Virus record (IMG/VR): IMGVR_UViG_3300025732_000034
Length of the DNA: 64,000 bases
Origin: an uncultured virus (IMG/VR IMGVR_UViG_3300025732_000034)
Taxonomy: Duplodnaviria; Heunggongvirae; Uroviricota; Caudoviricetes
Strand: one strand, 5' to 3'
In this document: piece by piece, positions 2,703-62,788 of the stretch
Numbering within the stretch: position 1 is the stretch's first letter
Layout of the letters: each line of letters starts with the position of its first letter
Position numbers and translations under genes: made by a program
Notes under the pieces: model-generated
Database searches by the model: none
Told to the model about the DNA's origin: nothing
Seen by the model: only the letters and a program-made list of their open reading frames with translations

Positions 2703-2951
2703 AACAGAGAAGATATTATCCGCATGGCAGACGAGGCGGGTATTACGCCATGGGAAAAACTTGAATACATCGGTGACAAAAAATTCTCATCAACAGATGA
2801 GGGGCTTGACGGCGATCTTACTTGCCTGATTCAATTTGCCACCCTTGTCGCCGCCGCTGAATGTGAGGCGTGTGCGAAATTGTGTTTGGAAACTGAGCCG
2901 TTTTACGGGGTGATGTTTGCCGAAGCCATCCGAGCAAGGGGACAAGCATGA
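2700..2951 (+). CDS. Hypothetical protein (MNREDIIRMA...AEAIRARG type), copy 1 only
   Basis: GAAGGAG RBS, ATG at 2700. Absent from copy 2. Confidence 0.75.
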   Translation: MNREDIIRMADEAGITPWEKLEYIGDKKFSSTDEGLDGDLTCLIQFATLVAAAECEACAKLCLETEPFYGVMFAEAIRARGQA

Positions 2952-3172
2952 ACGCCAATGACCACTACGAACGCCTCTATGGCGACCTGGGGCTGCACCC
3001 CAAGGACGCGGCCCGCTGGGTCTTCGCCTCGGGCTGGAACGCTGCCCTCGAGGAGTTTATGAAGCGCGTGAAAGAGATGCCCCTGGAGAGGGACACCCGC
3101 GCTGGGTTCCTGGTTTACCTGGGTCAGATGATGCACGTCGACCCGTCCGAGATCGAAGGGAGAATGCAATGA
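2948..3172 (+). CDS. Conserved hypothetical protein (left anchor of the cassette array)
   Basis: 74 aa. Close homologue at 40,057-40,281. Confidence 0.8.
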   Translation: MNANDHYERLYGDLGLHPKDAARWVFASGWNAALEEFMKRVKEMPLERDTRAGFLVYLGQMMHVDPSEIEGRMQ

Positions 3173-3606
3173 CCATAGAAGCAATGAAACAGGCGCTGGA
3201 GGCGTTGGAGTGCATTTTTGCATCGACACATCCGTATCGTGGAGATGAATCAACCTTCACGGATGAGGCATCAGTACTTGGCGACAAAGCCATCACATCC
3301 CTACGCCAAGCCATAGAGCAGGCTGAGAAGCTGGAGCCTGTGGCGTGGTGTGTTACATACAACGGTGAATTAACTGGAAACGTTTTCGAGAACAAGCGTA
3401 TCGCTGATTTATGCAAGCGAAATCTTGAAGCGAAATATGGGTCGGAAGAAGATCGAAAAGTGGTGGCAATCTACGCCGCCCCACAACCACAGCATGAATG
3501 GGTTGGGCTGACGGATGAGGAAGTGGATTACATCGCCGATGAATACTCCACTTTGCAAGGCGCAATCCGCGCCATTGAAGCCAAATTAAGGAGCAAGAAC
3601 ACATGA
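3169..3606 (+). CDS. Modular cassette protein (MKQALEALE / LRQAIEQAEK / WVGLTDEE / AKL..KNT)
   Basis: Carries all four shared repeats, with ATGA overlaps at both ends. Confidence 0.8.
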   Translation: MTIEAMKQALEALECIFASTHPYRGDESTFTDEASVLGDKAITSLRQAIEQAEKLEPVAWCVTYNGELTGNVFENKRIADLCKRNLEAKYGSEEDRKVVAIYAAPQPQHEWVGLTDEEVDYIADEYSTLQGAIRAIEAKLRSKNT

Positions 3607-3713
3607 GCGACTGGACTACTCTTGAGCGAATAGCTTTTGTCCTTTTTGCTTTTGGGCTTGGCTTTATTTTTGGTTTTGCTTTTTGTTTACACGGATTGGG
3701 AGGTGACAAATGA
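3603..3713 (+). CDS. 36-aa membrane peptide (MSDWTTLERIAFVLFAFGLGFIFGFAFCLHGLGGDK)
   Basis: Translated by hand. ATGA overlaps on both sides and an internal GGAGG RBS for the next gene. Confidence 0.7.
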   Translation: MSDWTTLERIAFVLFAFGLGFIFGFAFCLHGLGGDK

Positions 3714-4186
3714 CTGAACAATCCTTAGCACTGCAACTGGCTGATTCGGCTGATGCCTGTCAACTCACTGTACACGATTGCTTTTTAGTTGCCAAAGAAT
3801 TACGCCGCCTGCATGACCTGCTAGGTAAAGCAAATGCGCTGGCGCGTATTCGTGCTAATAAAATTGACGAATTAGAACAACAAATAACTAAGACCGAGGC
3901 GCAACTTGGGGAATCAGTATGGAACTATGGCGAACTTAAAAGGGAGCAATTGGCGAACCAACAAAAAACTTCTGGTTCGCCAGTGGTTTCAGAGCTGCAT
4001 TGCATTTGCGGAGCAGAGTGGGAATGGCACAACCATGATTGGGAACTTGTCACCACCCCACAACCACAGCGTGAATGGGTTGGGCTGACGGAAGATGAAG
4101 TCATCGAATGCACGCCGACTTGGGGAGGTACTGTTGAAGATGTTGCCCGACTCATCGAAGCCAAACTCAAGGAGAAGAACACATGA
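3710..4186 (+). CDS. Modular cassette protein with C-terminal WVGLT...KLKEKNT module
   Basis: 158-aa ORF with shared C-terminal repeats. Confidence 0.8.
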   Translation: MTEQSLALQLADSADACQLTVHDCFLVAKELRRLHDLLGKANALARIRANKIDELEQQITKTEAQLGESVWNYGELKREQLANQQKTSGSPVVSELHCICGAEWEWHNHDWELVTTPQPQREWVGLTEDEVIECTPTWGGTVEDVARLIEAKLKEKNT

Positions 4187-4332
4187 GCAAAGACGAACTG
4201 CTGGCGATCCTGCGCCTGTGTAACGCTGACTCGTCAGCCATCGATGCTGTTGAGTTGGCCTACGAGTTGGGTTTCAAAGCGGGTCAAGCGGAAAAATCCG
4301 ATGACCCTCAGTCCATCGACTCAGGGTCGTAA
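4183..4332 (+). CDS. 49-aa conserved protein (right anchor of the cassette array)
   Basis: MSKDELLAILRLCNADSS... Near-identical ORF at 42,094-42,243. Confidence 0.7.
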   Translation: MSKDELLAILRLCNADSSAIDAVELAYELGFKAGQAEKSDDPQSIDSGS

Positions 4333-6800
4333 CCCTTCACCAATTTGCGCTCTTTGCCCTGGGCAGTGGCATAGCGGTAAATGTAGTCCGCATGCCGCTG
4401 CTTGGCCTTGATCACCTTCTCGCGGTACTCGCGGAACATGGTCGAGATGCTGGGGTTGATCGCCCAGACCACATGGTGCTTGGTCATCTTTTCCTCAATC
4501 TGCATGGCCCAGCCAGCCTTCTCAAGCGTGTACATGGCATCGAGCACCATCTGATCCTTCTGCCACTCGGTTTTGCCCTCGAGCCGCCTTCTGGCTGACC
4601 GCTTGAGGCTTCTCAGGTCCACCATCTGCGTGTCCCCGCTCACTTGGATGATGTAGTCGGTCATCCACTGATCGAACGAGTCGTCAAGCACCCCGGCCAA
4701 CTCACCCAGGGCATAGCGGAACGCGGGGATGATGTAGCCCCGCACGATGTGGACAACTTTGTGGACAATCTCAACATCGACCTGCGGGCTGAACGGGTTC
4801 TCCATCAGGTGCATCAACAGAATCAAGCGGCCCGCGGTGCCCTCGAGCTTACCGAAGGCCGTCATATATTCGCTGGATGCGTTCAAGAGCCGCTCGTCCT
4901 GCTTGGCCCCTTCGTACCATGATTGGAAATCCCGATACGCATGGTATGCGTCTGGGGATAACTTGTACGTCTGGGGCGGCAGGGCGTAGATCAAGCGCAG
5001 CGTGTTCTCCCACGCCTGGGCGCTTGTCATGTACTCGGGCACAGGGTTACCCAAGCGCGTCTTGCTACCGCGCAGGATCGCTGGTATAAATCGCTGGAGT
5101 AGACCATCGCTTGCGAGGGAGGCCAGGTTTTGCTTAAAAACTTGTGGCTGGATGTTGCCGTAGATGCTGACGGCCAAGTTCTCGCAGTGGATCGACCCCG
5201 CGCCCACGCGATCCATCTCGTACCGTTCTGCCTCGTATGACACCACCCACGCTGATCGATCCTCGCCGCTTTGCTTGTCGGTCAGTTTGCGAATCCATGA
5301 GTTCATCTCATCGAGGTGGCACAGCAGCCCCCGTGGCCGCTCGGCAGCAGACCGCACGAGTTTCTGGCTGGTGATGTCACTCACCGTGATCTTGAGCGGC
5401 ACAGGCTGCGGTGGCATCTCGGGCACGGCTGGTGGCTGGCCCCCGAGCAGGGCATCGGGCGAGGCTGAGAACTCGAGGAATGACTTCTTGGCGCTGGCGT
5501 ATGCGGCCTCCTTACCCTCCCAGTCCAGCAGTTCCTTCTGGTATCGTGGCCGGTCCTCGGCCTCGATGTCTTTGAGCGGTGAGAGCATGGGGCGCGATCC
5601 GGGTGACTTCTTGTCCGCTGGGTCACCGAGGGTCATCAACCAGAGCACCGGCGGCACTCTGAACCCTGGCATCAACTCGAGCCGGATGCGGGCATCAACC
5701 ACCCCGCAGACAGCGCTCAATCCAGCGAACAAAGGGACCAAAGGGTCGCACCCAACGCTGTCGGATATCTCCAGCGCCCGTGTTTGCAAAACCGAGGGCC
5801 AAAGCCCCATGTCCATCTCTGGTGGCGGTGGCCGCAGCCCTTGCAGCACATCGACCGGGGCCATCGGTGGGGCATCCACCTTGCTGAACAACTCGTGCGC
5901 GTCAGGCGTGGGGCGCTGCCACCCGTGCTGCTTGGCAATGTGAAAGAGTGTCCCCAACTTGACAGCGGTGGCCTTGTCCGGCTTAAAGCTGACCCACTGC
6001 GTCACGATGCCGCGCTCACCAGGGTACTTGGCTGCGGACTGCGCGGACCACTCGTTCCACAGTTGCAGGGCTGCGTCAAGCTGCTCGGTCTGGGTGCCTG
6101 CCCAGTGCAGGGCCATGCCGACGTTGATCCACTCCTCGCGGGCGCAGTCGGCAGGGATGGCCTCGAGCGCCTGCCTGATCTCCTCCCAGGATGCGTCAAC
6201 CTGCTCACCGGTGGCGATGGTGCGCTCTTTGTCTTGCGCCAGCAGTTCGTGCCAGATGTCCAGCAGTTGCTGGGGGATCACGGGCAGGCGCATCCAGTGG
6301 CCCAGGCCAGCCCAGTGATAGGGTTGCTTGGTGTCAGGATGGATGCTTGGGGGCAGCACATCCTGCACCGTCAACCCGTTGGCCGTGGCGCAGCGCAACT
6401 CGTAAGCTGTCACCCCACCGACCAGAATCTTTTTACTCGGCAGCGCGAGGCCAAAGGGCATCGTGTACAGTAGCTTGCCGTGCCCAGGGCGACCACTGTT
6501 GATGATCACAGCATCGGGTGCGTCGTAGAGCGCTTGCAGATCGATCCCCTGCGCCAGCGTAGCGTCCCAGTTGTCGATGTCAAAGGCCATCGTGCCGCTG
6601 TACGCATGGGCCAGTCCAATGCCGTAGCCCTGGGGTAGTTGCGTCTGGTCCTTGAGGCAGCGCTCACGCTTGTTCCAGCCCACCGCAGCAGCACCTGTCG
6701 GACCCTTCGTGCCTGGGGGGATTGGCACAAGGCTCCAGCCATGTCGGATGTACGCATCAACGGATGCGGGATGTTGTTGCACTGATTGGACTGCTGTCAT
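4308..6800 (-). CDS. Bifunctional primase-polymerase with PriCT-2 and DUF3987-like helicase domain
   Basis: N-terminal YIRHGWSLVPI..GTKGP, FDID, GHGKLLY, VLPPSIHP. PriCT-2 WINVGMALH...WNEWS...KY. C-terminal G.PADKKSP, DEM, DGLLQRF. Start set at 6800 by comparison with copy 2. Confidence 0.85.
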   Translation of the reverse strand: MTAVQSVQQHPASVDAYIRHGWSLVPIPPGTKGPTGAAAVGWNKRERCLKDQTQLPQGYGIGLAHAYSGTMAFDIDNWDATLAQGIDLQALYDAPDAVIINSGRPGHGKLLYTMPFGLALPSKKILVGGVTAYELRCATANGLTVQDVLPPSIHPDTKQPYHWAGLGHWMRLPVIPQQLLDIWHELLAQDKERTIATGEQVDASWEEIRQALEAIPADCAREEWINVGMALHWAGTQTEQLDAALQLWNEWSAQSAAKYPGERGIVTQWVSFKPDKATAVKLGTLFHIAKQHGWQRPTPDAHELFSKVDAPPMAPVDVLQGLRPPPPEMDMGLWPSVLQTRALEISDSVGCDPLVPLFAGLSAVCGVVDARIRLELMPGFRVPPVLWLMTLGDPADKKSPGSRPMLSPLKDIEAEDRPRYQKELLDWEGKEAAYASAKKSFLEFSASPDALLGGQPPAVPEMPPQPVPLKITVSDITSQKLVRSAAERPRGLLCHLDEMNSWIRKLTDKQSGEDRSAWVVSYEAERYEMDRVGAGSIHCENLAVSIYGNIQPQVFKQNLASLASDGLLQRFIPAILRGSKTRLGNPVPEYMTSAQAWENTLRLIYALPPQTYKLSPDAYHAYRDFQSWYEGAKQDERLLNASSEYMTAFGKLEGTAGRLILLMHLMENPFSPQVDVEIVHKVVHIVRGYIIPAFRYALGELAGVLDDSFDQWMTDYIIQVSGDTQMVDLRSLKRSARRRLEGKTEWQKDQMVLDAMYTLEKAGWAMQIEEKMTKHHVVWAINPSISTMFREYREKVIKAKQRHADYIYRYATAQGKERKLVKGYDPESMD

Positions 6801-6990: not shown

Positions 6991-7194
6991 ATGCCCGCAC
7001 TTAAATCATTCGACACGCACATGACTCTACGAGTCACAAACCGTGTCCGTACCGCGTTCAATCGCAAGGCAGAGCGATACGGGAAACCGTCCGATGTCTT
7101 GCGTGAACTCATCGAGGCTTTTCTTGATGATCGACTTGTAATCCAACCCAACCCCCGTAAGGAGTCACTGTATGTCCCTCGAATCCAAGATTGA
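6991..7194 (+). CDS. Ribbon-helix-helix DNA-binding protein
   Basis: THMTLRV beta strand, then AF..KA..YG..SDVLRELIEAF helices. Confidence 0.7.
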   Translation: MPALKSFDTHMTLRVTNRVRTAFNRKAERYGKPSDVLRELIEAFLDDRLVIQPNPRKESLYVPRIQD

Positions 7195-7573
7195 AGCCCT
7201 CACCGCCGCCGTCATTGCCTTGACCGCGAAACTGGAATCTACGAATGTAGCGCCAGCCGCGCCTGTGGTAAACCCTACCCCCGCACCCGTGGCTGCACCG
7301 GCACCCGCTCCAGCCCCTGCACCGGTGGCTGCTGCCATGCCCGCGCCTCCCACGTTTCAACCCGCCCCCGCCGCGCCTGCCGCCACTGGTGCTCCGTTCA
7401 GCGATCCGAAGGGGCTGATCGACTACGTGATGAGCGCATACAAGGCGCTTGGCCCGCAGAAGGGTGCCGAGATTCAGAAGGTCTTGACCGGCTTGGGCTA
7501 CGGCAATATCAACGATGTCAAGCCTGAGCACTACGGCGCTTTGCATGCTGGCGTTGAAGCGCTGAAGGGTTAA
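7172..7573 (+). CDS. Pro/Ala-linker protein of the replication module
   Basis: AAGGAG RBS. MSLE..IE.LT.AV N-terminus, PA-rich linker, G..I.DV.PE.Y C-terminus. Confidence 0.75.
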   Translation: MSLESKIEALTAAVIALTAKLESTNVAPAAPVVNPTPAPVAAPAPAPAPAPVAAAMPAPPTFQPAPAAPAATGAPFSDPKGLIDYVMSAYKALGPQKGAEIQKVLTGLGYGNINDVKPEHYGALHAGVEALKG

Positions 7574-7575
7574 CC

Positions 7576-8874
7576 ATGAGCACCCACGCTAACCTGTCCC
7601 CGAGCAAGCGCCACCGCTGGGCGCTGTGTCCGGGCAGCGTTCGTGAGGAAGCCAAGTACCCAGAGGAGCGCACCAGCGAAGCCGCGATTGACGGCACCCA
7701 TAGTCACACACTGCTTGAGCACTGTCTGAGCGAGGGCGTTGAGCCTGAGACAATGATCGGTCAAGTCCTGAGTGATGACGATGGGGCTTTCAAGGTGGAC
7801 GCTGACCGCGCTGCTAGGGTCAAGGTCGCCACGGACTATGTGAAACACCGCATCGCGGAGCAGTTCGGCATGTGCGAGGTCATCGCGGAAACGCGAGTCA
7901 ACCCTCAGCACCTGCTTGGCCGTGACGACATGAGCGGCACAGTGGACATCCAGATTCGCGGCACTGAAGTGCTCGAACTGGTGGACTACAAAGACGGCAT
8001 GGGTGTGGTGGAGGCCGAGGGCAACTACCAACTCGAACTGTACGCGATGGGCTGCTTGGCTGAGTTGAAGCTGCCCGTCAACGGCCAGTACCCGTGGAAG
8101 CGGGTCCGCATGACCATCATCCAGCCCAAGCTGGCGCTGAAGGGCATGAAGCCAATCACATCGCATGAGGTGCCGGTTCAGGCAATTCTTGATATGATTG
8201 GCAAGATGGTCATCGAAGGCGCTGCCTGCGATGCACCGGACGCACCACTGGTGCCGGGTGACAGTCAATGTAAATTTTGCCGCGCTAAAGGCTCCTGCGC
8301 CGCGCTGGCAAGTAACGTAATGAAGGAGGTAGGAATCATGTTCCAGCCAGCAGTAATGAACCCGATGGATGTCGCGCAGCAAAGCGCTGACAAAGACCCC
8401 ACGACAATGGACGATGCCCAGATCAGACAGATCATGGAGGCGGCTCCGCTCATGCGCCAGCTACTCGAGGGCGTGGAGAAGGAAGCCCTGCGCCGTCTGG
8501 AGGCCGGTCAATCAATCCCTGGACTCAAGTTGGTCAACGGTCGCGGCTCACGCGCCTGGGCGCTGCCCGAGGAGCAGATGGCCGAGAAGCTGGTCAAGAT
8601 GGGCATCCCCAAGACCGCAGTCTACGAAACCAAACTCGTCACCCCCGCCAAGGCTGAGAAGCTGACCTGGGAGAAGCGTGACGGAACCAAGATGCAACTG
8701 TCCGACCGCCAACTCAAGACGATGGAAAACGAGTACGTCGTCAAGATGGCTGGCAAGCTGACTGTTGTCCCTGAATCCGATGGCCGTCCCGCTGTCGTAC
8801 TGAATGCTGCGCCGATGTTCGGTGCAGTTGAAGCAGCACCCGCTGCCGAATCCCTGCCCTCGTGGCTAACCTAA
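7576..8874 (+). CDS. DUF2800-like PD-(D/E)xK (Cas4-like) nuclease
   Basis: HANLSPS..HRW..CPGS, GT..H, GTVD, VDYKDG, QL.LYA.G, IIQP, CKFC...C. Confidence 0.85.
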   Translation: MSTHANLSPSKRHRWALCPGSVREEAKYPEERTSEAAIDGTHSHTLLEHCLSEGVEPETMIGQVLSDDDGAFKVDADRAARVKVATDYVKHRIAEQFGMCEVIAETRVNPQHLLGRDDMSGTVDIQIRGTEVLELVDYKDGMGVVEAEGNYQLELYAMGCLAELKLPVNGQYPWKRVRMTIIQPKLALKGMKPITSHEVPVQAILDMIGKMVIEGAACDAPDAPLVPGDSQCKFCRAKGSCAALASNVMKEVGIMFQPAVMNPMDVAQQSADKDPTTMDDAQIRQIMEAAPLMRQLLEGVEKEALRRLEAGQSIPGLKLVNGRGSRAWALPEEQMAEKLVKMGIPKTAVYETKLVTPAKAEKLTWEKRDGTKMQLSDRQLKTMENEYVVKMAGKLTVVPESDGRPAVVLNAAPMFGAVEAAPAAESLPSWLT

Positions 8875-23843: not shown

Positions 23844-23873
23844 TTTAAGAACGGGGCCGAAGCCCCGTTTGGG

Positions 23874-24625: not shown

Positions 24626-24679
24626 GATAAATTCCTTTCAAAATTAAGACGTTGAAAGGGGCCGAAGCCCCGTTTCAGA

Positions 24680-26788: not shown

Positions 26789-28180
26789 TTAACGTTCCAT
26801 GTAAGCTAAAGCAATGTGCAAACCACCGGCTGGTATAGTGACTGCGCCAGCAGATGTATCAACCAACACACCAAAAAAATCACCTGGCTCAAAACTTACT
26901 TCATAAACGGTTGAGGCACTTGCGCCATTAGCATCACTCAAGTTAACCACTAACCCAGTATTTACACCATTTTTGCGAACAGTAACGGTGTAAAGTAATC
27001 CAACTGGCCCAGGCAATGTTGTTGCTTCAGCCCAAATTCTTGATAAAGTGAATCGACTAGCTACTGGCATTCTGGCTGCATTGTTTGATGCAAAAACCAA
27101 TCCAGTAGAAGGTTGAACAACTACACCAGAACCGCCAGCAATGCTTGATGCGTTTGCAATGAACAGTTGAACACCACTGTTTGCGGAAGGACTATAAGCA
27201 GATTTAACCGAATAATCACCTAGAGTGTTTGAAATGTTGCTGCTGTTGATGTTTGAAGGCAACTGGATAAAACGATGCCTTATACCGCCCTGAATACGAA
27301 TAGGAGCACTGCCAGATGTTGCAGTGCCTGAACGATTAAAACCAATTGAAGGGGATTGAACAGTACAAAACAACGAATCAATTAACTCAATTCCATGACC
27401 AGTTGTTGCCGGGTTTGATCCATATCCGTCAACCGTACAATTTCTAAACATGATGGAATCTGCGGCATTTAAGACTATGCCGCTTACGCCACCACTAGTA
27501 GTATGGTTTTGACCTACGCGCTCAACCCAACATTCTTCAAAAGTACTTGATTGAGGAGCATCTGTTGGATTACCAGAGCCATCGCAAACAATGCCTTGTT
27601 CGCCTAATTCTTCAAAATCGCAATTGATAAAGGTGTTTTGACGGCCAGAGGTGTAATACAAACCAATGTAATTGTTGGTAATAATTCGCAAGTCAATGAA
27701 TGTGTTGACGCTTGGTCTGGTTGTTCCACTATCCCCGTTTTTAATGTACAGCGCAATGTCAGAACAGTTGCTGATTTTGATGGTTGAAAAACGGCAATGT
27801 AATACATTCCCTTCGACTAACAATCCTTTTACGCTTGCCGTTCCGGTGTTGCCGTCTAATTGGAAATTCTCATAAACCAAATTTTGTGCCAGCGAACCAA
27901 CATACATCAAATTGGTTCCAGTAAACCCGCTGCCAGCCTTGATGATGGACGCATAAACACCTTCGCCCAAAACTGAACACTGGCTTACATTTAGTTGTTG
28001 TTTAACAATATATGTTCCAGTTGGGATGTACAGCGTGCTTTGACCATTTGCTGTTGCGGCAGCGATTGCGGCTTGCATAGCGGCTGTATCATCTGTTACA
28101 CCATCGCCTATAGCACCATAATCCAAGACGTTAATCAACGCACCTTGGATCATTGAATAAGATACTTTAGTCAAAGACAT
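26789..28180 (-). CDS. Tailspike/depolymerase, right-handed beta helix
   Basis: MSLTKVSYSMI, NVLDYGA.GDGVTDDT.A.Q.AI, LYIP.GTY (pectate-lyase-3-like start). AT-rich DNA. Confidence 0.8.
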   Translation of the reverse strand: MSLTKVSYSMIQGALINVLDYGAIGDGVTDDTAAMQAAIAAATANGQSTLYIPTGTYIVKQQLNVSQCSVLGEGVYASIIKAGSGFTGTNLMYVGSLAQNLVYENFQLDGNTGTASVKGLLVEGNVLHCRFSTIKISNCSDIALYIKNGDSGTTRPSVNTFIDLRIITNNYIGLYYTSGRQNTFINCDFEELGEQGIVCDGSGNPTDAPQSSTFEECWVERVGQNHTTSGGVSGIVLNAADSIMFRNCTVDGYGSNPATTGHGIELIDSLFCTVQSPSIGFNRSGTATSGSAPIRIQGGIRHRFIQLPSNINSSNISNTLGDYSVKSAYSPSANSGVQLFIANASSIAGGSGVVVQPSTGLVFASNNAARMPVASRFTLSRIWAEATTLPGPVGLLYTVTVRKNGVNTGLVVNLSDANGASASTVYEVSFEPGDFFGVLVDTSAGAVTIPAGGLHIALAYMER

Positions 28181-28212
28181 TTTTTATCCTTTACGCAATT
28201 GAATTTAATTGC

Positions 28213-28371
28213 TCATCGGTTGGTTTTTTTTAATGTTGGATGATTCCATTCAAATATGTAATCCCCATTTGCATTGCCATCATTTCTTAAAAGAATTGAA
28301 CCTTTATCTAAGTCAAAATCTTCTGGTTTTAAATCAGGGTATATTGCAAAAGGTTTTTCGTATAAATTCAT
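28213..28371 (-). CDS. XkdW-like small tail-fibre-associated protein, apparently frameshifted at an A8 run
   Basis: MNLYEK..AIYPDL...DF....I.LRNDG..GDYI.EWNHPTL. The expected PTDEQL ending lies in another frame (stop at 28,191). Confidence 0.6.
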   Translation of the reverse strand: MNLYEKPFAIYPDLKPEDFDLDKGSILLRNDGNANGDYIFEWNHPTLKKTNR

Positions 28372-29294
28372 TATGCACCCCTTACTAATACACCAGTTAA
28401 GTAGGTATATTTTTGCCCTGCCGCAATGTCGCTTGTTCCAACAAATGTTCCAAAAGCATACAGTTCAACATAATCTGTTGAACCATTAAAATAAACCAAA
28501 CCTGTAACAGTTACTTGGCTCAAGTTAACACTAGCGTCTTGTCCTCTAAAGTATTCTGAGCCATTTTTGTATATTGAACATAAAATTCTTGTGTTTGTTC
28601 CAGTCAAACCAACAGAGCCTGAAATTTGATAATAGCCAGCAACTGTTGGAGTAAATCTGTAATTGGTCGCTGAATCGAAATTATTGTTAGTATCGTATTC
28701 TTCAGCATTCAACTGAACTTTTGTAAACGTTGCGGTTGTAAGTGATTGATTTGCGCCCGTTCTGTACACGCTAAACGCTGGTCCACCTGTTACCGCAACA
28801 GTAACTGCACCAGGGGCGTTTGTAATACCAATACCAGCACCAGCCGTTAAAGTGGCGGCAACATAATTTGTGCCGTTACCAATTGGAATTTGACCGTTTG
28901 TTGGTGTTGTTGTTATTCCAGTGCCACCGTTACCAACGCCCAAAGTTCCTGAAACGTGCGTTGTAAGGCCAATCTTTCCCCATGAAGGGGCTACACCGAC
29001 ACCACCAGAAATTAGCGCATTTCCAGTTGCAATATCAGCAAGTTTTGACAACGCTGTGGTGGTGCTGGCGTACAGCAAATCACCGACAGCATAAGACGAT
29101 TGGCCTGTGCCACCACTGGTCGCAGCCAATGGGGTTGTGGTCAATGTCAATGATGCGGCACTAACTGCTCGGCCTGCGGTCAGATCAGCAACGCTGACCT
29201 GCTTAGTCACGCCGCTCTGAACAATTGGCAATACCTCAGTACCCGCCAGCGGCGTGGTCGCTGCGGTTAGTGCTGAGATTTTTGTATCGGCCAT
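28371..29294 (-). CDS. Tail fibre protein with C-terminal C1q-like domain
   Basis: MADTKISAL, GGTG repeats, PAFS, E.DT...FD...RFTP.VAGYY, NGSTDYVELY. Confidence 0.75.
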   Translation of the reverse strand: MADTKISALTAATTPLAGTEVLPIVQSGVTKQVSVADLTAGRAVSAASLTLTTTPLAATSGGTGQSSYAVGDLLYASTTTALSKLADIATGNALISGGVGVAPSWGKIGLTTHVSGTLGVGNGGTGITTTPTNGQIPIGNGTNYVAATLTAGAGIGITNAPGAVTVAVTGGPAFSVYRTGANQSLTTATFTKVQLNAEEYDTNNNFDSATNYRFTPTVAGYYQISGSVGLTGTNTRILCSIYKNGSEYFRGQDASVNLSQVTVTGLVYFNGSTDYVELYAFGTFVGTSDIAAGQKYTYLTGVLVRGA

Positions 29295-30322: not shown

Positions 30323-30628
30323 TCAAGAGTAGTAGGTGATGTTCAGTTTTGCGCCGCCAGTTTGCTCGATGAACTGAATCTGGGAGATGTCGCCATCATA
30401 TTGCAACGTCACGCCAGCAGCCAGGGGCATGCCAACACTTGCGGTCGGGGCCACGCCATCATCACGCCAACGCACGGCCTGAGCCTCGGGAATGATGATT
30501 GCGATGCGGGGAGTGCCAGCAAGACCGTTCAGGTCTTTTTGCGGCACAGTCAGTTTGGTCGCTGCACTCAGACTCGTGATCTGCTGGTAACCCAGCACCG
30601 AGGTAATTGCTTTGAGGTTGATTGCCAT
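30323..30628 (-). CDS. Small virion protein
   Basis: GYQQIT.LS, VRWRDDG..PTA.VG. AAGGAG RBS. Confidence 0.7.
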   Translation of the reverse strand: MAINLKAITSVLGYQQITSLSAATKLTVPQKDLNGLAGTPRIAIIIPEAQAVRWRDDGVAPTASVGMPLAAGVTLQYDGDISQIQFIEQTGGAKLNITYYS

Positions 30629-31512
30629 CAGAATCTCCTTCGTTCAGTGAACGATCTTAACTTAATAAACGGATTTTCGACAGAGGGTGTCGGCGTGCCG
30701 CCAATGACAATCGCTGCCTCATTTCCAACCACCGAGTACGCCCCCGGCAAAGCTGAGATGACTCGATCAACCGAGATTGTGGCCGATTCACCCAAATACG
30801 CGTACACCCCAAATTCGCATGTGATGTTGCGGACATACGCAATTGTCGCATTTTGTCCGGCGACTGCATACGCCCCCGGATCGGCAGACACAACTCGCGT
30901 TTTGAGGATTGATGCTGACTGACCGCTGACAGCATAACTGCCTGGGGCGGCTGTGACCAGTTTTGACCGCAAAAGGTCAGCAGACTGCCCTGTGACGGCA
31001 TAGCTGCCTGACGCGGCTGCGATGTTGTGCCCGCGCCTGAGCGTGGCAGGCTGGCCGTTGATGGTGTAGCTGCCTGAGTCAGCGGTGACCTGCTTGGACC
31101 GGTAGATGCTGGCGCTTTGGCCGGTGACGGCATAGCTGCCCGAGTCGGCTGCAAGCGCTTTGGAGCGCAGGATTGTGGCATCCTGGCCCGTGACGGCATA
31201 GCTACCGGCTGCGGCTGCAAGAGCGCGGCTTCGATAGATGCTGGCAGACTGTCCTGTAACTGCATAACTGCCAGCGGCGGCAGATATGACCTTGCTTCGA
31301 GTGATTGTGGCGCTCTGACCGGTGACCGAGTACGTTCCATAGGCCGCTGTGAGTGAGCGGTTTTTAGCGACAGTTGCAGACTGGCCCGTGACGGTGTACG
31401 TGCCATACGCTGCAACAACAATGTACTGAAGCGGTTCAAGGTCTAGCTTCCCTCCATCTTCCTGAACAAGATAGGAGCCATCCTCGCACAGAAGATAGGC
31501 TACTAATCCCAT
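30628..31512 (-). CDS. Tandem-repeat virion protein (~22-aa repeats)
   Basis: About 11 units of A..GSYAVTGQ.A.(I/L).R. Confidence 0.75.
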   Translation of the reverse strand: MGLVAYLLCEDGSYLVQEDGGKLDLEPLQYIVVAAYGTYTVTGQSATVAKNRSLTAAYGTYSVTGQSATITRSKVISAAAGSYAVTGQSASIYRSRALAAAAGSYAVTGQDATILRSKALAADSGSYAVTGQSASIYRSKQVTADSGSYTINGQPATLRRGHNIAAASGSYAVTGQSADLLRSKLVTAAPGSYAVSGQSASILKTRVVSADPGAYAVAGQNATIAYVRNITCEFGVYAYLGESATISVDRVISALPGAYSVVGNEAAIVIGGTPTPSVENPFIKLRSFTERRRF

Positions 31513-37354: not shown

Positions 37355-37397
37355 TGTATACGTTTTCTGGGAACGTGTGTCAAGTGACCCACTGGGT
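37355..37397 (-). promoter_or_regulatory. Putative terS/late promoter with the palindrome just upstream of -35
   Basis: Minus strand TTGACA (37,383-37,378), 17 nt spacer, TATACA. ACCCACTGGGT at 37,387-37,397. Confidence 0.55.
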
Positions 37398-37564
37398 TCT
37401 AGGATTCAAAAAATAAAAAAATTCCGTGCGGACCCTACGGCGCTGGACCCTTGGGCCGTCGGCCCTCCCCCACCCCCTCGACCCAAATCAACCCTCCAAA
37501 ATCACGGGCACCGGGAGCGCGGCTCCCGTGGCTCCGGCTCCCGCGTCTCCGTGGCTCCGCGCTC

Positions 37565-39742: not shown

Positions 39743-40042
39743 ATGTCACAGTACACACAATCCGCGCTCTCTCATCGGCTCATCGAATTGCGCTCCCGTC
39801 TCAATTTTTCACAGATTCAAATGGCCGATTATTTGGGAGTGTCTGTATTCACGCTCCGCAAATGGGAGAGCGGAGAGCGTAACGCGGGAGCCGCGCTCAT
39901 CCGGCTACTCGATGTTTTGAATTTTTTGGAGGTCTTTGCTCCCGCGCTTCACGCTGGGTTTTTGCCCACAGAATCGAGTCATGTCCGAAAATCCAGATTG
40001 AAAAGGTCAACCGATTCGGTCATGTCAGAAAATCCACTTTGA
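39743..40042 (+). CDS. XRE-type HTH regulator
   Basis: SQ.QMADYLGVSVFTLRKWESGER. Confidence 0.8.
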   Translation: MSQYTQSALSHRLIELRSRLNFSQIQMADYLGVSVFTLRKWESGERNAGAALIRLLDVLNFLEVFAPALHAGFLPTESSHVRKSRLKRSTDSVMSENPL

Positions 40043-40056
40043 AGGAGTCAACCACC

Positions 40057-40281
40057 ATGAACGCCAATGACCACTACGAACGCCTTTATGGCGACCTGGG
40101 CCTGTCACCCAAGGACGCGGCCCGCTGGGTCTTTGCATCAGGCTGGAACAGCGCCCTCGAGGAGTTTATGAAGCGCCTGAACACCATGCCACTGGGTGAC
40201 GACACCCGCGCATCGTTTGCCGTGTATGTCGGGCAGATGATGCACGTTGACCCGTCCGAGATCGAGGGGAGAATGCAATGA
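40057..40281 (+). CDS. Conserved hypothetical protein (array left anchor)
   Basis: Homologue of 2948-3172. Confidence 0.8.
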   Translation: MNANDHYERLYGDLGLSPKDAARWVFASGWNSALEEFMKRLNTMPLGDDTRASFAVYVGQMMHVDPSEIEGRMQ

Positions 40282-40628
40282 GCATAGAAGCAATGAAACA
40301 GGCGCTGGATGCGTTGGAGTACGCCGGCAAGGATGATTTTTGGCGCTATCAAAATGAAGCAATCACATCCCTACGCCAAGCCATAGAGCAGGCTGAGAAG
40401 CAAGAGCCTGTGGCGTGGATTGAGCACCACAAAGGCGGTGATAACTTAGTTTGGGATGAGCCAAACAAAGGAACACCCCTCTACACCCACCCACAACCAA
40501 AGCGTGAATGGGTCGGGCTGACGGATGAGGAAATTGAACAAGGCTGTAAAGAGTCTTGGGTAACTTTACAAGCATGGCAGTCCGCTGTCTGGTGGGCGGA
40601 AGCCAAACTCAAGGAGAAGAACACATGA
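40278..40628 (+). CDS. Modular cassette protein
   Basis: All four shared repeats, with different inserts from 3169-3606. Confidence 0.8.
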   Translation: MSIEAMKQALDALEYAGKDDFWRYQNEAITSLRQAIEQAEKQEPVAWIEHHKGGDNLVWDEPNKGTPLYTHPQPKREWVGLTDEEIEQGCKESWVTLQAWQSAVWWAEAKLKEKNT

Positions 40629-41008
40629 GCATAGAAGTAATGAAACAAGCGCTTGAGGCGTTGGAATTTCATAGTGCTGGCGATGAGGTTGATGAGCAAA
40701 TCATTACATCCCTACGCCAAGCCATAGAGCAGGCTGAGAAGCAGGATGCGTGGAAGCCCAACGACACAGCATACCGACCCGGAGGACTGCCGCAAGACTT
40801 CATCGTGCATGAGGTTGAGAATGAAGGCGACTGGTCAGAGTGGGTCTGCCCTGACCCAGAACAATACTTCATGAAATGCTGCGACTGCGGTCTGGTACAT
40901 GAGATGCAGTTCAAGGTCGTCAAGTACTCAGTGGGTGACGAGTGTGATGGCGTTGACGATCCCGATGTGCGGGGAATTTTTAGAGCAAGGAGAATAAGCA
41001 ATGCCTAA
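40625..41008 (+). CDS. Modular cassette protein with CCDCGLVH zinc-ribbon-like C-terminus
   Basis: Start at 40,625 (ATGA overlap). Carries the two N-terminal repeats. Confidence 0.75.
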   Translation: MSIEVMKQALEALEFHSAGDEVDEQIITSLRQAIEQAEKQDAWKPNDTAYRPGGLPQDFIVHEVENEGDWSEWVCPDPEQYFMKCCDCGLVHEMQFKVVKYSVGDECDGVDDPDVRGIFRARRISNA

Positions 41009-41432
41009 ATACGAACATGGATTAACGTTTAAAGAATGTTACGTATGCGCTTCGCCAAAGCATGCAGCGCAGGCTGAGAAGCAGGAGCCTGTGATTGGCA
41101 CAAAGACTTGGTATGAGGACGGAAAAGTTATCACGCAGAACCTGTACCCGTCTGACGTTTACAAGCAAGAGAAGCAGGAGTCGGTGGCGATCTATCAATA
41201 CCAATTGGCGAGTGGTTCGTGGATTGACCAAACAAAAAACAGTTACGACTACAACGTTCGCCACGGTCAAGCGACTGTTCGGGTTGTCTACACCACCCCA
41301 CAACCACAGCGTGAATGGGTTGGGCTGACTCAGCAAGACATCGACATTGCCTTTGATGACACGCAAGAGGGTGGTGGGTTTAATGAGTTTGCCGAAGCCA
41401 TAGAAGCCAAACTCAAGGAGAAGAACACATGA
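41001..41432 (+). CDS. Modular cassette protein
   Basis: QAEKQEPV and KQEKQESVA partial repeats, plus a WVGLT...KLKEKNT end. Confidence 0.75.
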   Translation: MPKYEHGLTFKECYVCASPKHAAQAEKQEPVIGTKTWYEDGKVITQNLYPSDVYKQEKQESVAIYQYQLASGSWIDQTKNSYDYNVRHGQATVRVVYTTPQPQREWVGLTQQDIDIAFDDTQEGGGFNEFAEAIEAKLKEKNT

Positions 41433-42097
41433 CGCCTTTGGTTTGCAAAGCGGTCAAGTTTGCGCCTGAACCAGAAACAGCCTTGTGGTTTGATGTTGGT
41501 CAAATGGATACAACCCCCGCAATGAAAGTTCCTGCCGAGTTCTTAATGAACTTGCCATCAAAAAGAACTGGCATTGTTGGTTTTGACACTGTAGGTAAAG
41601 ACTTTGCTCTGTGGCTTACTCAGGGCGATGGCTCTGTTACTGTTGGTGGTTGTTCAATGTGGCATGGTGGCAAATATTTCCCGCCATACGCATATATGGC
41701 AACTCCAGATGGTTTTAAGGTTTACCGCAAAGGCCAAGAAATAACCTTAGAAGACATCAAACCAGTGCACCGTATGGTGCTTGCTGTGGTGATCAAATTG
41801 GCTATGCAGTCCGAGGGTTACAGGCCAACACCACGGCGAACCTTCATCAACCAAAAGAGGCAATCCAAAGGCAAATCGGCACTGACATTCGACTGGCACA
41901 CCGTATTGGTAGAACCGCCAAAGCAAAAGAATGATTCACAGGGTGGCACTCACGCAACCCCGCGCAGGCATCAAGTGCGAGGTCATTGGCGCACCTACAA
42001 ATCTGGAAAACGAGGATGGGTAAGTGAATGCTGGAAAGGTGATGCAAGCAAAGGAACTGTTTTCAAAGACTATCAACTCAAGGAGAAGAACACATGA
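41429..42097 (+). CDS. Hypothetical protein with HxxPRRHxVRGHWR motif, copy 2 only
   Basis: 222 aa, ending in the shared LKEKNT repeat. Confidence 0.8.
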   Translation: MTPLVCKAVKFAPEPETALWFDVGQMDTTPAMKVPAEFLMNLPSKRTGIVGFDTVGKDFALWLTQGDGSVTVGGCSMWHGGKYFPPYAYMATPDGFKVYRKGQEITLEDIKPVHRMVLAVVIKLAMQSEGYRPTPRRTFINQKRQSKGKSALTFDWHTVLVEPPKQKNDSQGGTHATPRRHQVRGHWRTYKSGKRGWVSECWKGDASKGTVFKDYQLKEKNT

Positions 42098-42243
42098 CCA
42101 AAGACGAACTGCTGGCAATCCTTCGCCTGTGCAACGCTGACTCGTCAGCCATCGATGCTGTCGAGTTGGCCTACGAGTTGGGTTTCAAAGCGGGTCAAGC
42201 GGAGAAATCCGATGACCCTCAATCCATCGATTCGGGGTCGTAA
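42094..42243 (+). CDS. 49-aa conserved protein (array right anchor)
   Basis: Homologue of 4183-4332. Confidence 0.7.
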   Translation: MTKDELLAILRLCNADSSAIDAVELAYELGFKAGQAEKSDDPQSIDSGS

Positions 42244-44711
42244 CCCTTCACCAATTTGCGCTCTTTACCCTGGGCGGTGGCATAGCGGTAAATGTAGTCC
42301 GCATGCCGCTGCTTGGCCTTGATCACCTTCTCGCGGTACTCGCGGAACATGGTCGAGATGCTCGGGTTGATCGCCCAGACCACATGGTGCTTGGTCATTT
42401 TCTCCTCGATCTGCATGGCCCAGCCAGCCTTCTCAAGTGTGTACATGGCATCGAGCACCATCTGATCCTTCTGCCACTCGGTCTTGCCCTCGAGCCGCCT
42501 TCTGGCTGACCGCTTGAGGCTTCTCAGGTCCACCATCTGCGTGTCCCCGCTCACCTGGATGATGTAGTCCGTCATCCACTGATCGAACGAGTCATCAAGC
42601 ACCCCGGCCAACTCACCTAGGGCATACCGAAACGCAGGGATCACGTAACCCCGCACGATGTGGACAACTTTGTGGACAATCTCGACATCGACCTGCGGGC
42701 TGAACGGGTTCTCCATCAAGTGCATCAACAGAATCAAACGGCCTGCGGTGCCCTCAAGTTTGCCAAATGCCGTCATGTATTCGCTGGATGCGTTCAAGAG
42801 CCGCTCGTCCTGCTTGGCCCCTTCGTACCATGATTGGAAATCCCGATAGGCATGGTATGCGTCTGGGGATAACTTGTAGGTCTGGGGCGGCAGCGCATAG
42901 ATCAAGCGCAGCGTGTTTTCCCATGCCTGGGCGCTTGTCATGTACTCGGGCACAGGGTTACCCAGGCGCGTCTTGCTGCCCCGCAGGATCGCTGGTATAA
43001 ATCGCTGGAGCAGACCATCGCTTGCGAGGGAGGCCAGGTTTTGCTTAAAAACTTGTGGCTGGATGTTGCCGTAAATCGAAACGGCCAAGTTCTCGCAGTG
43101 GATCGACCCCGCGCCCACGCGGTCCATCTCATACCGCTCTGCCTCGTATGACACCACCCACGCTGATCGATCCTCGCCGCTTTGCTTGTCGGTCAGTTTG
43201 CGAATCCATGAGTTCATCTCATCAAGGTGGCACAGCAGCCCCCGTGGCCGCTCGGCAGCAGAGCGCACAAGTTTCTGGCTGGTGATGTCACTCACTGTGA
43301 TCTTGAGCGGCACAGGCTGCGGTGGCATCTCGGGCACGGCTGGCGGCTGGCCCCCAAGCAAGGCATCGGGTGAAGCTGAGAACTCGAGGAACGACTTTTT
43401 GGCACTGGCGTATGCGGCCTCCTTGCCCTCCCAGTCCAGCAGTTCCTTCTGGTATCGTGGCCGGTCTTCGGACTCGATGTCCTTGAGCGGCGACAGCATG
43501 GGGCGCGATCCGGGTGACTTCTTGTCCGCTGGGTCACCGAGGGTCATCAACCAGAGCACCGGCGGCACTCTGAACCCTGGCATCAACTCAAGCCGGATGC
43601 GGGCATCAACCACCCCGCAGACAGCGCTCAACCCAGCGAACAAAGGGACCAAAGGGTCGCACCCAACGCTGTCGGATATCTCCAGCGCCCGTGTTTGCAA
43701 AACCGAGGGCCAAAGCCCCATGTCCATCTCAGGTGGCGGTGGCCGCAGCCCTTGCAGCACATCGACCGGGGCCATCGGTGGGGCTTCCACCTTGCTGAAC
43801 AACTCGTGCGCGTCAGGCGTGGGGCGCTGCCACCCGTGTTGCTTGGCGATGTGAAAGAGTGTCCCCAACTTGACAGCGGTGGCTTTGTCCGGCTTGAAGC
43901 TGACCCACTGCGTCACGATGCCGCGCTCACCAGGGTACTTGGCCGCAGACTGCGCGGACCACTCGTTCCACAGTTGCAGGGCTGCGTCAAGCTGCTCGGT
44001 CTGGGTGCCAGCCCAGTGCAGAGCCATCCCGACGTTGATCCACTCCTCGCGGGCGCAGTCAGCAGGGATCGCCTCGAGTGCCTGCCTGATCTCCTCCCAG
44101 GATGCGTCAACCTGCTCACCGGTAGCGATGGTGCGCTCTTTGTCCTGCGCCAGCAGTTCTTGCCAGATGTCCAGCAGTTGCTGGGGGATCACTGGCAGGC
44201 GCATCCAGTGACCGTCACCGGCCCAGTGATAGGGCTGCTTGGTGTCTGGGTGAATGCTCGGGGGCAAGACATCCTGCACCGTCAACCCGTTGGCCGTGGC
44301 GCAGCGCAACTCGTAGGCTGTCACGCCGCCAACCAGAATCTTTTTGCTCGGCAGCGCGAGGCCAAAGGGCATCGAGTACAGTAACTTGCCGTGCCCAGGG
44401 CGACCACTGTTGATGATCACAGCATCGGGTGCATCGTAGAGCGCTTGCAGGTCGATCCCCTGCGCCAGCGTAGCGTCCCAGTTGTCGATGTCAAAGGCCA
44501 TCGTGCCGCTGTACGCATGGGCCAGCCCGATGCCGTAGCCTGGGGGCAGTTGGGTCTGGTCTTTCAGGCACCGCTCACGCTTGTTCCAGCCCACCGCAGC
44601 CGCGCCTGTCGGACCCTTCGTGCCTGGGGGGATTGGCACAAGGCTCCAGCCGTGTCGGATGTACGCATCAACAGATGCGGGATGTTGTTGCACTGAGGGG
44701 ACTGCTGTCAT
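42219..44711 (-). CDS. Prim-Pol/PriCT-2/DUF3987 primase-helicase
   Basis: Near-identical to 4308-6800. Confidence 0.85.
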   Translation of the reverse strand: MTAVPSVQQHPASVDAYIRHGWSLVPIPPGTKGPTGAAAVGWNKRERCLKDQTQLPPGYGIGLAHAYSGTMAFDIDNWDATLAQGIDLQALYDAPDAVIINSGRPGHGKLLYSMPFGLALPSKKILVGGVTAYELRCATANGLTVQDVLPPSIHPDTKQPYHWAGDGHWMRLPVIPQQLLDIWQELLAQDKERTIATGEQVDASWEEIRQALEAIPADCAREEWINVGMALHWAGTQTEQLDAALQLWNEWSAQSAAKYPGERGIVTQWVSFKPDKATAVKLGTLFHIAKQHGWQRPTPDAHELFSKVEAPPMAPVDVLQGLRPPPPEMDMGLWPSVLQTRALEISDSVGCDPLVPLFAGLSAVCGVVDARIRLELMPGFRVPPVLWLMTLGDPADKKSPGSRPMLSPLKDIESEDRPRYQKELLDWEGKEAAYASAKKSFLEFSASPDALLGGQPPAVPEMPPQPVPLKITVSDITSQKLVRSAAERPRGLLCHLDEMNSWIRKLTDKQSGEDRSAWVVSYEAERYEMDRVGAGSIHCENLAVSIYGNIQPQVFKQNLASLASDGLLQRFIPAILRGSKTRLGNPVPEYMTSAQAWENTLRLIYALPPQTYKLSPDAYHAYRDFQSWYEGAKQDERLLNASSEYMTAFGKLEGTAGRLILLMHLMENPFSPQVDVEIVHKVVHIVRGYVIPAFRYALGELAGVLDDSFDQWMTDYIIQVSGDTQMVDLRSLKRSARRRLEGKTEWQKDQMVLDAMYTLEKAGWAMQIEEKMTKHHVVWAINPSISTMFREYREKVIKAKQRHADYIYRYATAQGKERKLVKGYDPESMD

Positions 44712-44902: not shown

Positions 44903-45106
44903 ATGCCCGCACTTAAATCATTCGACACGCACATGACTCTACGAGTCACAAACCGTGTCCGTACCGCGTTCAATCGCAAGGCAGAGCGATACGGGAAACC
45001 GTCCGATGTCTTGCGTGAACTCATCGAGGCTTTTCTTGATGATCGACTTGTAATCCAACCCAACCCCCGTAAGGAGTCACTGTATGTCCCTCGAATCCAA
45101 GATTGA
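44903..45106 (+). CDS. RHH DNA-binding protein
   Basis: Identical to 6991-7194. Confidence 0.7.
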   Translation: MPALKSFDTHMTLRVTNRVRTAFNRKAERYGKPSDVLRELIEAFLDDRLVIQPNPRKESLYVPRIQD

Positions 45107-45485: not shown

Positions 45486-45487
45486 CC

Positions 45488-61960: not shown

Positions 61961-61991
61961 TGTTTAAGAACGGGGCCGAAGCCCCGTTTGT

Positions 61992-62288: not shown

Positions 62289-62326
62289 GATGATTCCTTA
62301 AGAACGGGGGCCGAAGCCCCCATTGT

Positions 62327-62734: not shown

Positions 62735-62788
62735 GATAAATTCCTTTCAAAATTAAATTGACGAAAGGGGCCGAAGCCCCTTGGCCGT

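Follow-up and report, generated by a model that had tools for sequence, protein, structure and literature searches.

Exchange of modules at short conserved boundary or linker sequences was proposed for lambdoid and P22-like phages (Susskind and Botstein 1978; Clark et al. 2001, for HK620; both as cited in PMC3029335). In the T-even phages, the gp38 adhesins carry hypervariable segments between conserved glycine-rich motifs, with exchanges located in or near these motifs (Trojet et al. 2011, PMC3157838, which cites Tetart et al. 1996 and 1998), and the PeSL regulatory cassettes of T4-type phages represent an integrase-free system (Arbiol et al. 2010, PMC2839356; Comeau et al. 2014, PMC4122927). 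In genes 67 and 68 of mycobacteriophage Island3, a stretch of approximately 50 bp encoding 18 common C-terminal residues was proposed to mediate gene insertion and deletion (Pope et al. 2011, PMC3029335). The background to all of this is the debate on phage mosaicism, in which homologous exchange at short conserved linkers is set against random illegitimate joins filtered by selection.

The present analysis concerns a stretch of 64,000 nucleotides (nt) from an uncultured virus of the Caudoviricetes (IMG/VR record IMGVR_UViG_3300025732_000034), referred to below as the window, and, in particular, an array of small genes at positions 3169–4186 in which variable coding segments are strung on four conserved DNA blocks, R1 to R4. 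The window consists of two related phage genomes of about 37.4 kb arranged head to tail (repeat families D2–D12, spacings of 37.1–38.1 kb, 76–98% identity), so that the array is available in two copies, copy 1 and copy 2. In our opinion, homologous recombination at these 30–60-nt conserved coding blocks probably shuffles gene segments as well as whole genes, with R4 acting additionally in translational coupling. The array looks like a natural case of the long-debated swapping of modules at short conserved linkers.

Conserved coding blocks and segment re-assortment

At the peptide level, R1 is a helix, R2 ends in AEKQEPVAW, R3 corresponds to PQPQREWVGLTDEE, and R4 corresponds to AIEAKLKEKNT followed by the stop codon. 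The consensus of a 95-member alignment can be written as MSIEAMKQALEALE - x(~20) - AITxLRQAIEQAEKQEPVAW - x(~25) - PLYTTPQPQREWVGLTDEEI - x(~17) - RAIEAKLKEKNT, where the three inter-block segments, designated V1, V2 and V3, vary in both length and sequence. In the window, R1 starts at 3169, 40278 and 40625; R2 spans 3287–3348, 40357–40418 and 40698–40759 (repeat family D17, 77–100% identity); R3 spans 3470–3527, 4047–4104, 40480–40537 and 41287–41344 (D13, 81–100%); and R4 is present as an identical 30-mer at 4157, 40599 and 41403, as a variant at 3577 and as a partial copy at 42075 (D15). R1 and R4 have the short DNA run CATAGAAGC in common. A degenerate peptide-level pattern for R4 gave three matches in the window and none in 100 dinucleotide shuffles. 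Homology between the two copies stops just past R1 (3211/40320) and restarts within R4 (4164/42075). Both the reading of the sequence and the repeat search bore out the initial annotation in placing four blocks at these sites, in frame, along a chain of plus-strand open reading frames (ORFs). Its description of two array copies was correct in that different content lies between the same anchor genes, but it is two phages that are being compared, not two loci of one genome.

Conservation of the blocks at the nucleotide level was assessed in IMG/VR by means of degenerate patterns defined on the peptides, which kept codon choice from biasing the finds; each scan returned at least 122 stretches. 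For R3, whose instances were found without any DNA-level selection, the matches listed (n = 118) carried GGG in 99/118 cases against a background of 0.21, CTG in 100/118 (0.19), ACG in 73/115 (0.17) and GAT in 73/78 (0.48). Among the R4 matches listed, GCC occurred in 118/132 (background 0.23) and CTC in 76/132 (0.07), the exact 30-mer of the window was found in 57/132, and the third positions that form AAGGAG and ATGA were the most fixed (G in 130/132, G in 119/132 and A in 126/132). In R1 and R2, alanines within one and the same block were fixed on different codons (GCA in 96/115, then GCG in 93/115 and 108/115), with a few sites near 50:50. Over 115–130 independent IMG/VR instances per block, the same-codon fraction amounted to 0.70–0.78 against 0.36–0.42 expected from background usage. 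The synonymous sites of the repeats are, consequently, not saturated and are fixed in a position-specific manner, contrary to what conservation of the protein alone would give according to the initial annotation.

Linkage disequilibrium between the polymorphic synonymous sites (r2 of 0.31–0.39 in R2 and 0.31 in R4) indicates a few haplotypes common by descent and not site-wise codon preference. Contigs that have no other DNA in common still carry blocks with 91–93% nucleotide identity. Within the window, block paralogs use the same codon at 0.80–0.91 of identical residues, against 0.74–0.83 for six of the eight orthologous gene pairs between the two phages; the remaining two pairs are 100% identical. 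Short sequences are conserved at the nucleotide level between unrelated segments.

R4 contains AAGGAG, the stop codon and the ATG of the next gene in the form of ATGA, just as initially described, and the ATGA overlap was present in 121 of 130 R4 instances in IMG/VR, an ORF of at least 30 amino acids (aa) following in 118. Since the last codons of R4 supply the Shine-Dalgarno (SD) sequence, the stop and the ATG, a gene joined behind this block would be translationally coupled.

The segments between the blocks bear no relationship to one another between genes, and their re-assortment is nearly independent. For 144 different proteins with the full architecture (10,296 pairs), V1 was shared at 60% identity or more by 80 pairs, V2 by 22 and V3 by 79, while joint sharing was limited to four pairs for V1 and V2, one for V2 and V3, one for V1 and V3, and none for all three segments. 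The same pattern of re-assortment was obtained for proteins represented on 4–10 contigs each. In an all-against-all blastn comparison of 256 loci (high-scoring segment pairs of ≥ 150 nt and ≥ 80% identity), 307 of 1,039 homology breakpoints fell in the blocks, which account for 7% of the nucleotides; inside family ORFs, this was the case for 293 of 488, the blocks making up 29% of the ORF nucleotides, i.e., an approximately twofold enrichment. The random placement of breakpoints relative to R1–R4, named initially as the opposite outcome, was therefore not observed. Breakpoints and segment re-assortment are concentrated at the blocks, and this enrichment is not exclusive.

Additionally, in four freshwater runs (X1–X4), the summed contig depth in block bins was about 10–60 times that of the flanks. 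Logan contigs stop at blocks (for example, a contig covering 2600–3195 ends in R1, and others start in R3 or R4), which means that the assembly graph branches there. All of the listed contig joints start and end at blocks; they are replacements or content not known, not deletions.

The process could be envisaged as follows. Between two anchor genes, a fixed site holds small accessory genes that are coupled in translation and differ in set from phage to phage. Crossovers in the 30–60-nt blocks, both between co-infecting phages and between tandem paralogs, could be performed by host RecA or by the nuclease/single-stranded DNA-binding pair of the phage itself, for which a DUF2800 nuclease-family protein and an Enc34-type single-stranded DNA-binding protein are the candidates (Pfam, copy 1). 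In this way, V1, V2 and V3 would be exchanged, genes would be joined or divided, and entire genes would be gained or lost; repeated exchange and conversion would, in turn, maintain the homogeneity of the blocks; R4 would double as the translational-coupling joint for the gene joined behind it.

A bolder version, which we put forward tentatively and regard as somewhat doubtful, is that the blocks go beyond helices conserved in a passive way and constitute a pan-phage recombination grammar, i.e., a few haplotypes kept recombination-competent across thousands of freshwater phages. If so, three variable slots and whole genes would be drawn combinatorially from a common pool, providing a rapidly re-assortable repertoire of small early proteins, e.g., against host defences; it would parallel the shuffling of tail-fibre adhesins, at the sub-gene level and in non-structural proteins, and would show Botstein-type linkers at work. 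With linkers that are obvious, measurable codon by codon and associated with a near-independent assortment of the segments between them, the family is, in any event, a large natural data set that makes the linker model directly testable.

Competing explanations

Several points weigh against recombination at the blocks. We infer this mechanism as the most likely one and have not observed it, no recombination event having been seen directly. About 40% of the breakpoints in family ORFs (195/488) are not in the blocks, and, of the total, roughly half are not in family ORFs at all. Breakpoints are not independent events, so that p-values are inflated, and BLAST extends alignments through conserved blocks, which favours ends at block edges. 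Only 26–31% of random block pairs have an identical run of 20 nt or longer, the median run being 14–18 nt, so homologous recombination should work poorly between many of them. No classical single-strand annealing recombinase family was matched among the scanned phage ORFs. Apart from an empty-site contig, no clean R-to-R deletion or circle junction was found in the contigs of the four freshwater runs, in which rare variants are not visible. Finally, the blocks are structural helices, for which protein-level selection alone accounts for the amino acid conservation, and selection for folded, in-frame products would also push the surviving junctions towards the blocks.

According to the strongest competitor, this is an ordinary modular family whose blocks are structural helices, whose junctions arose by rare illegitimate recombination filtered by selection for in-frame, folded products, and whose common codons are a residue of recent ancestry without any part in exchange. 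The mapping of the blocks to predicted helices and linkers, the 195 of 488 breakpoints located elsewhere in the family ORFs and the lack of a 20-nt identical run in most block pairs all agree with this explanation. It does not easily accommodate otherwise unrelated contigs having blocks that are 91–93% identical, with position-specific codons and haplotypes, next to segments that cannot be aligned; moreover, block ancestry without exchange leaves unexplained the near-unlinked V1, V2 and V3, which are only 40–60 nt apart. We consider the modular-family explanation rather unlikely.

Alternatively, the nucleotide conservation could reflect a constraint on expression, exerted in R4 by the SD sequence, stop and ATG, in R1 by the initiation region, and in the internal blocks by an RNA signal that was not recognised. 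The greatest fixation being at the AAGGAG and ATGA third positions of R4 (130/132, 119/132 and 126/132) and the ATGA coupling in 121/130 are what such a constraint would give. However, upstream of the SD sequence, GCC (118/132) and CTC (76/132) are also far from background, and R2 and R3 are gene-internal yet equally fixed. No inverted repeats of ≥ 12 nt within 150 nt were found in 2900–4400 or 40000–42300, i.e., in the arrays, and no Rfam family was matched in the window. The linkage disequilibrium of the variable sites also points to descent and not to site-wise selection. We regard this explanation as quite improbable.

Nearly all of the data are short-read metagenome assemblies, and short-read contigs break exactly at the blocks; part of the apparent shuffling could thus be due to assembly chimeras, which is a further point against recombination at the blocks. 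In its extreme form, shuffling would be largely an artefact of short-read assemblers mis-joining family members at common blocks of 31 nt or longer. The Logan contigs ending at blocks, with a block depth 10–60 times that of the flanks, could be explained in this way, and so could the near absence of the family from cultured material (five GenBank phage records, all assembled from one spring, and ten genome loci, all on contigs of metagenome-assembled genomes, MAGs). Against this, the four-gene array of copy 2 is identical in two loci from other samples (L137 and L138), a given combination can be found on as many as 38 contigs of several sources, and proteins supported by multiple contigs still have single segments in common with different partners. 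At ≤ 60 nt, the blocks also fall below the typical read length and below the larger k-mers that common assemblers use. A largely artefactual origin is very improbable. Assemblies of such regions from short reads are prone to breaks and, possibly, chimeras.

A dedicated, truly integron-like site-specific cassette system with an unrecognised recombinase acting on the blocks would fit cassette boundaries lying exactly at ATGA junctions and the finding of both empty and filled sites, but it is scarcely credible, given that no recombinase or integrase family was matched in Pfam among the 26 large ORFs of copy 1 or the 10 array and anchor ORFs, that the blocks are coding direct repeats with no hairpin-forming sites, and that the family occurs in phages with different sets of replication and recombination genes (DSL-LC05, and a phage that encodes NinB and carries the annotation of a myovirus). 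The ORF list of the copy-2 left arm, which was not scanned with Pfam, likewise includes no ORF of integrase size. So, from the initial proposal of an integrase-free, integron-like system, the linker grammar and the conservation at the DNA level were retained; a dedicated system is not evident, and, with neither an integrase nor an attC-like site, the integron serves as an analogy only. A diversity-generating retroelement or targeted hypermutation was also considered and dropped, since the variable segments are of unequal length and are met again, unaltered, in other proteins, and no reverse transcriptase was found among the scanned ORFs.

Array genes, protein family and phage genomes

All features of the two arrays lie on the plus strand. 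In copy 1, anchor gene A (2948..3172, 74 aa, no family) ends with GAAGGGAGAATGCAATGA, which provides an SD-like run and the ATGA overlap into the first array gene (3169..3606). The latter encodes a 145-aa protein with the full R1-V1-R2-V2-R3-V3-R4 architecture (R1 at 3169–3210, R2 at 3289–3348, R3 at 3478–3522, and the R4 variant IEAKLRSKNT at 3568–3606). It is followed by an ORF for a hydrophobic 36-aa peptide (3603..3713), which has ATGA overlaps on both sides and is not a family member, and by array gene 3 (3710..4186, 158 aa), in which an unrelated N-terminal part precedes the C-terminal module composed of R3 (4055–4099), V3 and R4 (4148–4186). Anchor gene B (4183..4332, 49 aa) closes the array.

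In copy 2, anchor gene A (40057..40281, repeat family D12) and anchor gene B (42094..42243, paired with 4183–4332 in family D3) show 84% and 94% nucleotide identity, respectively, to their counterparts. Array gene 1 (40278..40628, 116 aa) contains all four blocks (R1 40278–40319, R2 40359–40418, R3 40488–40532, R4 40590–40628). Array gene 2 (40625..41008, 127 aa) has R1 (40625–40666) and an R2 without EPVAW (40700–40742), followed by a Cys-rich cargo domain (..CPDP..CCDCGLVHE..), with neither R3 nor R4. Array gene 3 (41001..41432, 143 aa) carries a partial R2 (AEKQEPV, ~41061–41092), R3 (41295–41339) and R4 (41394–41432). Array gene 4 (41429..42097) encodes a family-unrelated protein of 222 aa that matches phrog_10678 over residues 142–217 and nonetheless terminates in the R4 tail LKEKNT-stop-ATGA (partial R4, 42075–42097). 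Its homologues in GenBank phages, two weak records of one phage, match up to residue 217; this is consistent with a grafted tail and too thin to count as evidence. All of the array junctions in the window are stop/start overlaps behind an SD-like run, formed by ATGA and, in one case, by ATGCCTAA. Such chaining points to a single transcript whose genes are translated in a coupled manner.

A search with anchor A gave 11 IMG/VR loci, and relatives have zero, three or four genes between anchors A and B. In L139, the site is empty, A abutting B via the one-base overlap TGATG, and the same empty form was found in a contig of freshwater run X4, where 3173 is joined straight to 4188. In L137 and L138, from two other samples, the four-gene array is identical to that of copy 2, as noted above. 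L142 has an internal insertion in anchor B; L140 and L141 are organised differently downstream; L136 has an anchor A identical to that of copy 1, at which the contig stops; and L143–L146 are distant, with an anchor A identity of 38–53%. An N-terminal peptide, ..GWRKRQI.., recurs at the starts of small genes in these relatives, including the extended anchor B of L142 (4722–4790), and in the distant L143–L146 (ORFs behind the polymerase gene) a version of the C-terminal module with DDDDIQ(E/D)YKKPW.. frequently comes after it.

The protein family, which includes the majority of the array genes, is very large. The 145-aa protein gave more than 2,326 matches at E ≤ 1e-3 among 8,000 scored candidates; among the 120 matches listed, none was named and one had a Pfam domain. 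A search with a profile built from the 95-member alignment yielded 38,343, 15,367 and 235 representatives of 50% identity clusters at E ≤ 1e-3, 1e-10 and 1e-30, respectively, the first of these counts being an upper bound because of at least one evident false positive, P0123, a 4,318-aa repeat protein that matched via 31 weak stretches. No family was assigned to the array proteins in Pfam, PHROGs or NCBIfam, except for phrog_10678 on the 222-aa cargo protein, and none of the block peptides R1–R4 was found in the searchable literature. Tens of thousands of sequence clusters thus lack a model in these three collections, and the family is unannotated in several deposited phage genomes: three of the five GenBank records (MW202867.1, MW202879.1 and MW202701.1) have family ORFs with no annotated feature under the tblastn match. 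Among 185,579 species genomes, the only matches were the ten MAG contigs, whose bins belong to phyla that do not agree, which leaves no basis for naming a host. All of the runs containing the region come from freshwater or aquatic metagenomes, and the family is, in essence, a metagenomic one.

AlphaFold2 applied to the alignment gave a model with a pLDDT of 88.8 and a pTM of 0.50, with helices at residues 3–20 and 32–54 (R1 and R2) and at 116–125 and 129–144 (R3 to R4). The predicted fold consists of an N-terminal helical hairpin (R1, the V1 loop and R2), a small beta/alpha unit formed by V2, and a C-terminal two-helix module (R3, V3 and R4). According to this model, the blocks encode conserved helices of a genuine protein family and are not bare DNA linkers. 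Foldseek retrieved nothing from PDB at E ≤ 0.001; VIA-align wide retrieved just generic helical hairpins for residues 1–55, with Z up to 8.3, which is within the noise range for helical models; structural matches in BFVD were to uncharacterised proteins; and two Atlas searches gave no named family above threshold.

The architecture of individual members illustrates the modularity. The commonest form among ORFs retrieved via the R4 peptide was a variable N-terminal part followed by R3-V3-R4 (86/191). In P0121 (300 aa), two family units are joined in frame at residues ~120–135 through a hybrid R4/R1, ..AIEAMKQALEALE.., where the start of R4 (AIEA) continues into R1 (MKQALEALE). In P0202 and in the 340-aa protein of DSL-LC05, several cargo segments are strung on repeated (A)EKQEPV/QQEPV linkers. 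Known domains also appear as cargo, namely, WDGH in P0064 and a sub-threshold DUF551 in the DSL-LC05 member. The early/replication-region context, together with the scaffold-plus-variable-cargo design, suggests a fast-evolving accessory repertoire. As a guess, which is possible rather than probable, it could serve host takeover or anti-defence, with the blocks as scaffold and V2 providing specificity or cargo.

Scanning of the 26 large ORFs of copy 1 with Pfam revealed a P22-like virion module (portal, E 3e-174; coat; tail accessory factor; Sf6-type small terminase) and a replication block comprising Prim-Pol/DUF3987, DUF2800, the Enc34-type single-stranded DNA-binding protein, a polymerase-associated exonuclease domain and an SNF2 helicase. 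Judging from this gene content, the phage is a podophage with a P22-like virion and the array belongs to its replication/early region. The closest virus record (G001) is complete, with 38,032 bp and terminal repeats, and encodes the copy-2 array protein for protein. No tRNA genes were found in the window.

Each genome copy opens with an A-rich run (1–22 and ~37,405–37,420), and the repeat comparison pairs similar A-rich stretches at the two starts (16–123 versus 37408–37515). The junction of the two genomes lies near 37,390–37,420, and both a true tandem/concatemer and an assembly join are possible; a 73,419-bp contig on record carries the family proteins of both copies. Between the copies, some orthologous genes are 100% identical in nucleotides and others 89–93%. 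Two adjacent genes, for a 133-aa protein and the 432-aa DUF2800 protein, belong to the former group (7172–8874 versus 45084–46786), and virion genes belong to the latter; either a recent exchange or an assembly collapse could account for the identical block.

Several other features of the window deserve mention. Copy 1 alone contains a second, intergenic linker, TGTAACCCGTAACCC..GAAAGGATGTAACCATGAA, at 605–639, 778–812, 1101–1135 and 2347–2381, which combines stop codons with an SD-like run and the ATG that follows, and precedes four successive small genes; its core, with up to three mismatches allowed, gave three matches against none in 100 shuffles. A low-GC island of copy 1 (26789–29294, 0.40–0.43 versus ~0.56) comprises a pectate-lyase/beta-helix tailspike-like gene (26789–28180) together with the ORF behind it, and has the appearance of an acquired receptor-binding module. 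A tandem repeat of five copies with a period of 66 nt and 62–100% identity (30914–31284) lies within a minus-strand ORF of 294 aa (30628–31512), a repeat-containing putative structural protein with no Pfam match. A GC-rich hairpin, ..GGGGCCGAAGCCCC.., followed by T-rich sequence, is present in five copies between virion genes (D19; 23844–23871, 24649–24676, 61963–61990, 62298–62325 and 62758–62785), and these hairpins look like terminators.

Comparison with described systems

The array had initially been likened to an integron. No IntI was found next to the array among the 26 large ORFs and the 10 array and anchor ORFs, and no attC hairpin sites were found, the arrays containing no inverted repeats of ≥ 12 nt and the window no Rfam match.

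The Ead/Ea22-like and DUF551 early proteins of enterobacterial phages resemble the family in being small, in their early-region location and in having an N-terminal helical part with variable C-terminal domains. One structural match in BFVD was annotated as Ead/Ea22-like (E 8.3e-4, with a low TM-score, TMq 0.26), and the DSL-LC05 member scored 20.3 bits with DUF551 (PF04448) against a cut-off of 22 bits. At the same time, neither the DUF551 model nor Ead_Ea22, which we take to be the Pfam name of the Ead/Ea22-like family, gave a match at E ≤ 0.1 for the 10 array and anchor proteins.

The PeSL cassettes are similar in that short repeated motifs flank non-essential ORFs in plastic regions, allow gene insertion, deletion and replacement, and carry expression signals. 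PeSLs, however, are intergenic, consist of a promoter and a stem-loop terminator, and form mini-circles that were shown experimentally, whereas the repeats considered here are coding, carry translational signals (SD and ATGA) instead of transcriptional ones, and gave no circles or events in the sequences analysed. A PeSL-type unit (a sigma-70-like promoter with a stem-loop terminator) was not recognised in the arrays, where the repeats lie within ORFs and there are no inverted repeats; no promoter scan was made.

The case of Island3 is close to what is seen at R4, since in both a repeated C-terminal coding tail of adjacent genes would be the substrate, as with the R4 tails that include the LKEKNT of the 222-aa protein. 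Island3 is a single case from one phage pair, and the R4 tail is present in at least 122 IMG/VR stretches.

As in the gp38 adhesins, a conserved scaffold alternates with hypervariable segments, giving chimeric proteins with junctions at conserved motifs. However, gp38 is a virion receptor-binding protein of known function, whereas the present family consists of small, non-virion proteins; instead of glycine-rich motifs, it has helical blocks, variable-length cargo and tandem gene arrays.

The likeness to the boundary sequences of lambdoid and P22-like phages lies in short conserved junction sequences as sites of general homologous recombination, and it extends to the phage itself, which also has P22-like virion genes and small early/accessory ORFs joined by ATGA overlaps. 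In contrast to the boundary sequences, the linkers here are mostly intragenic, coding and structural and shuffle sub-gene segments along with whole genes, and their nucleotide conservation was measured over more than 100 instances per block. The principle is in print, but the family and its grammar were not found in the accessible literature. The present case stands apart in the use of coding, structural linkers in small non-virion proteins, the shuffling of both sub-gene segments and whole genes, the presence of translational instead of transcriptional signals in the linkers, and the very large scale.

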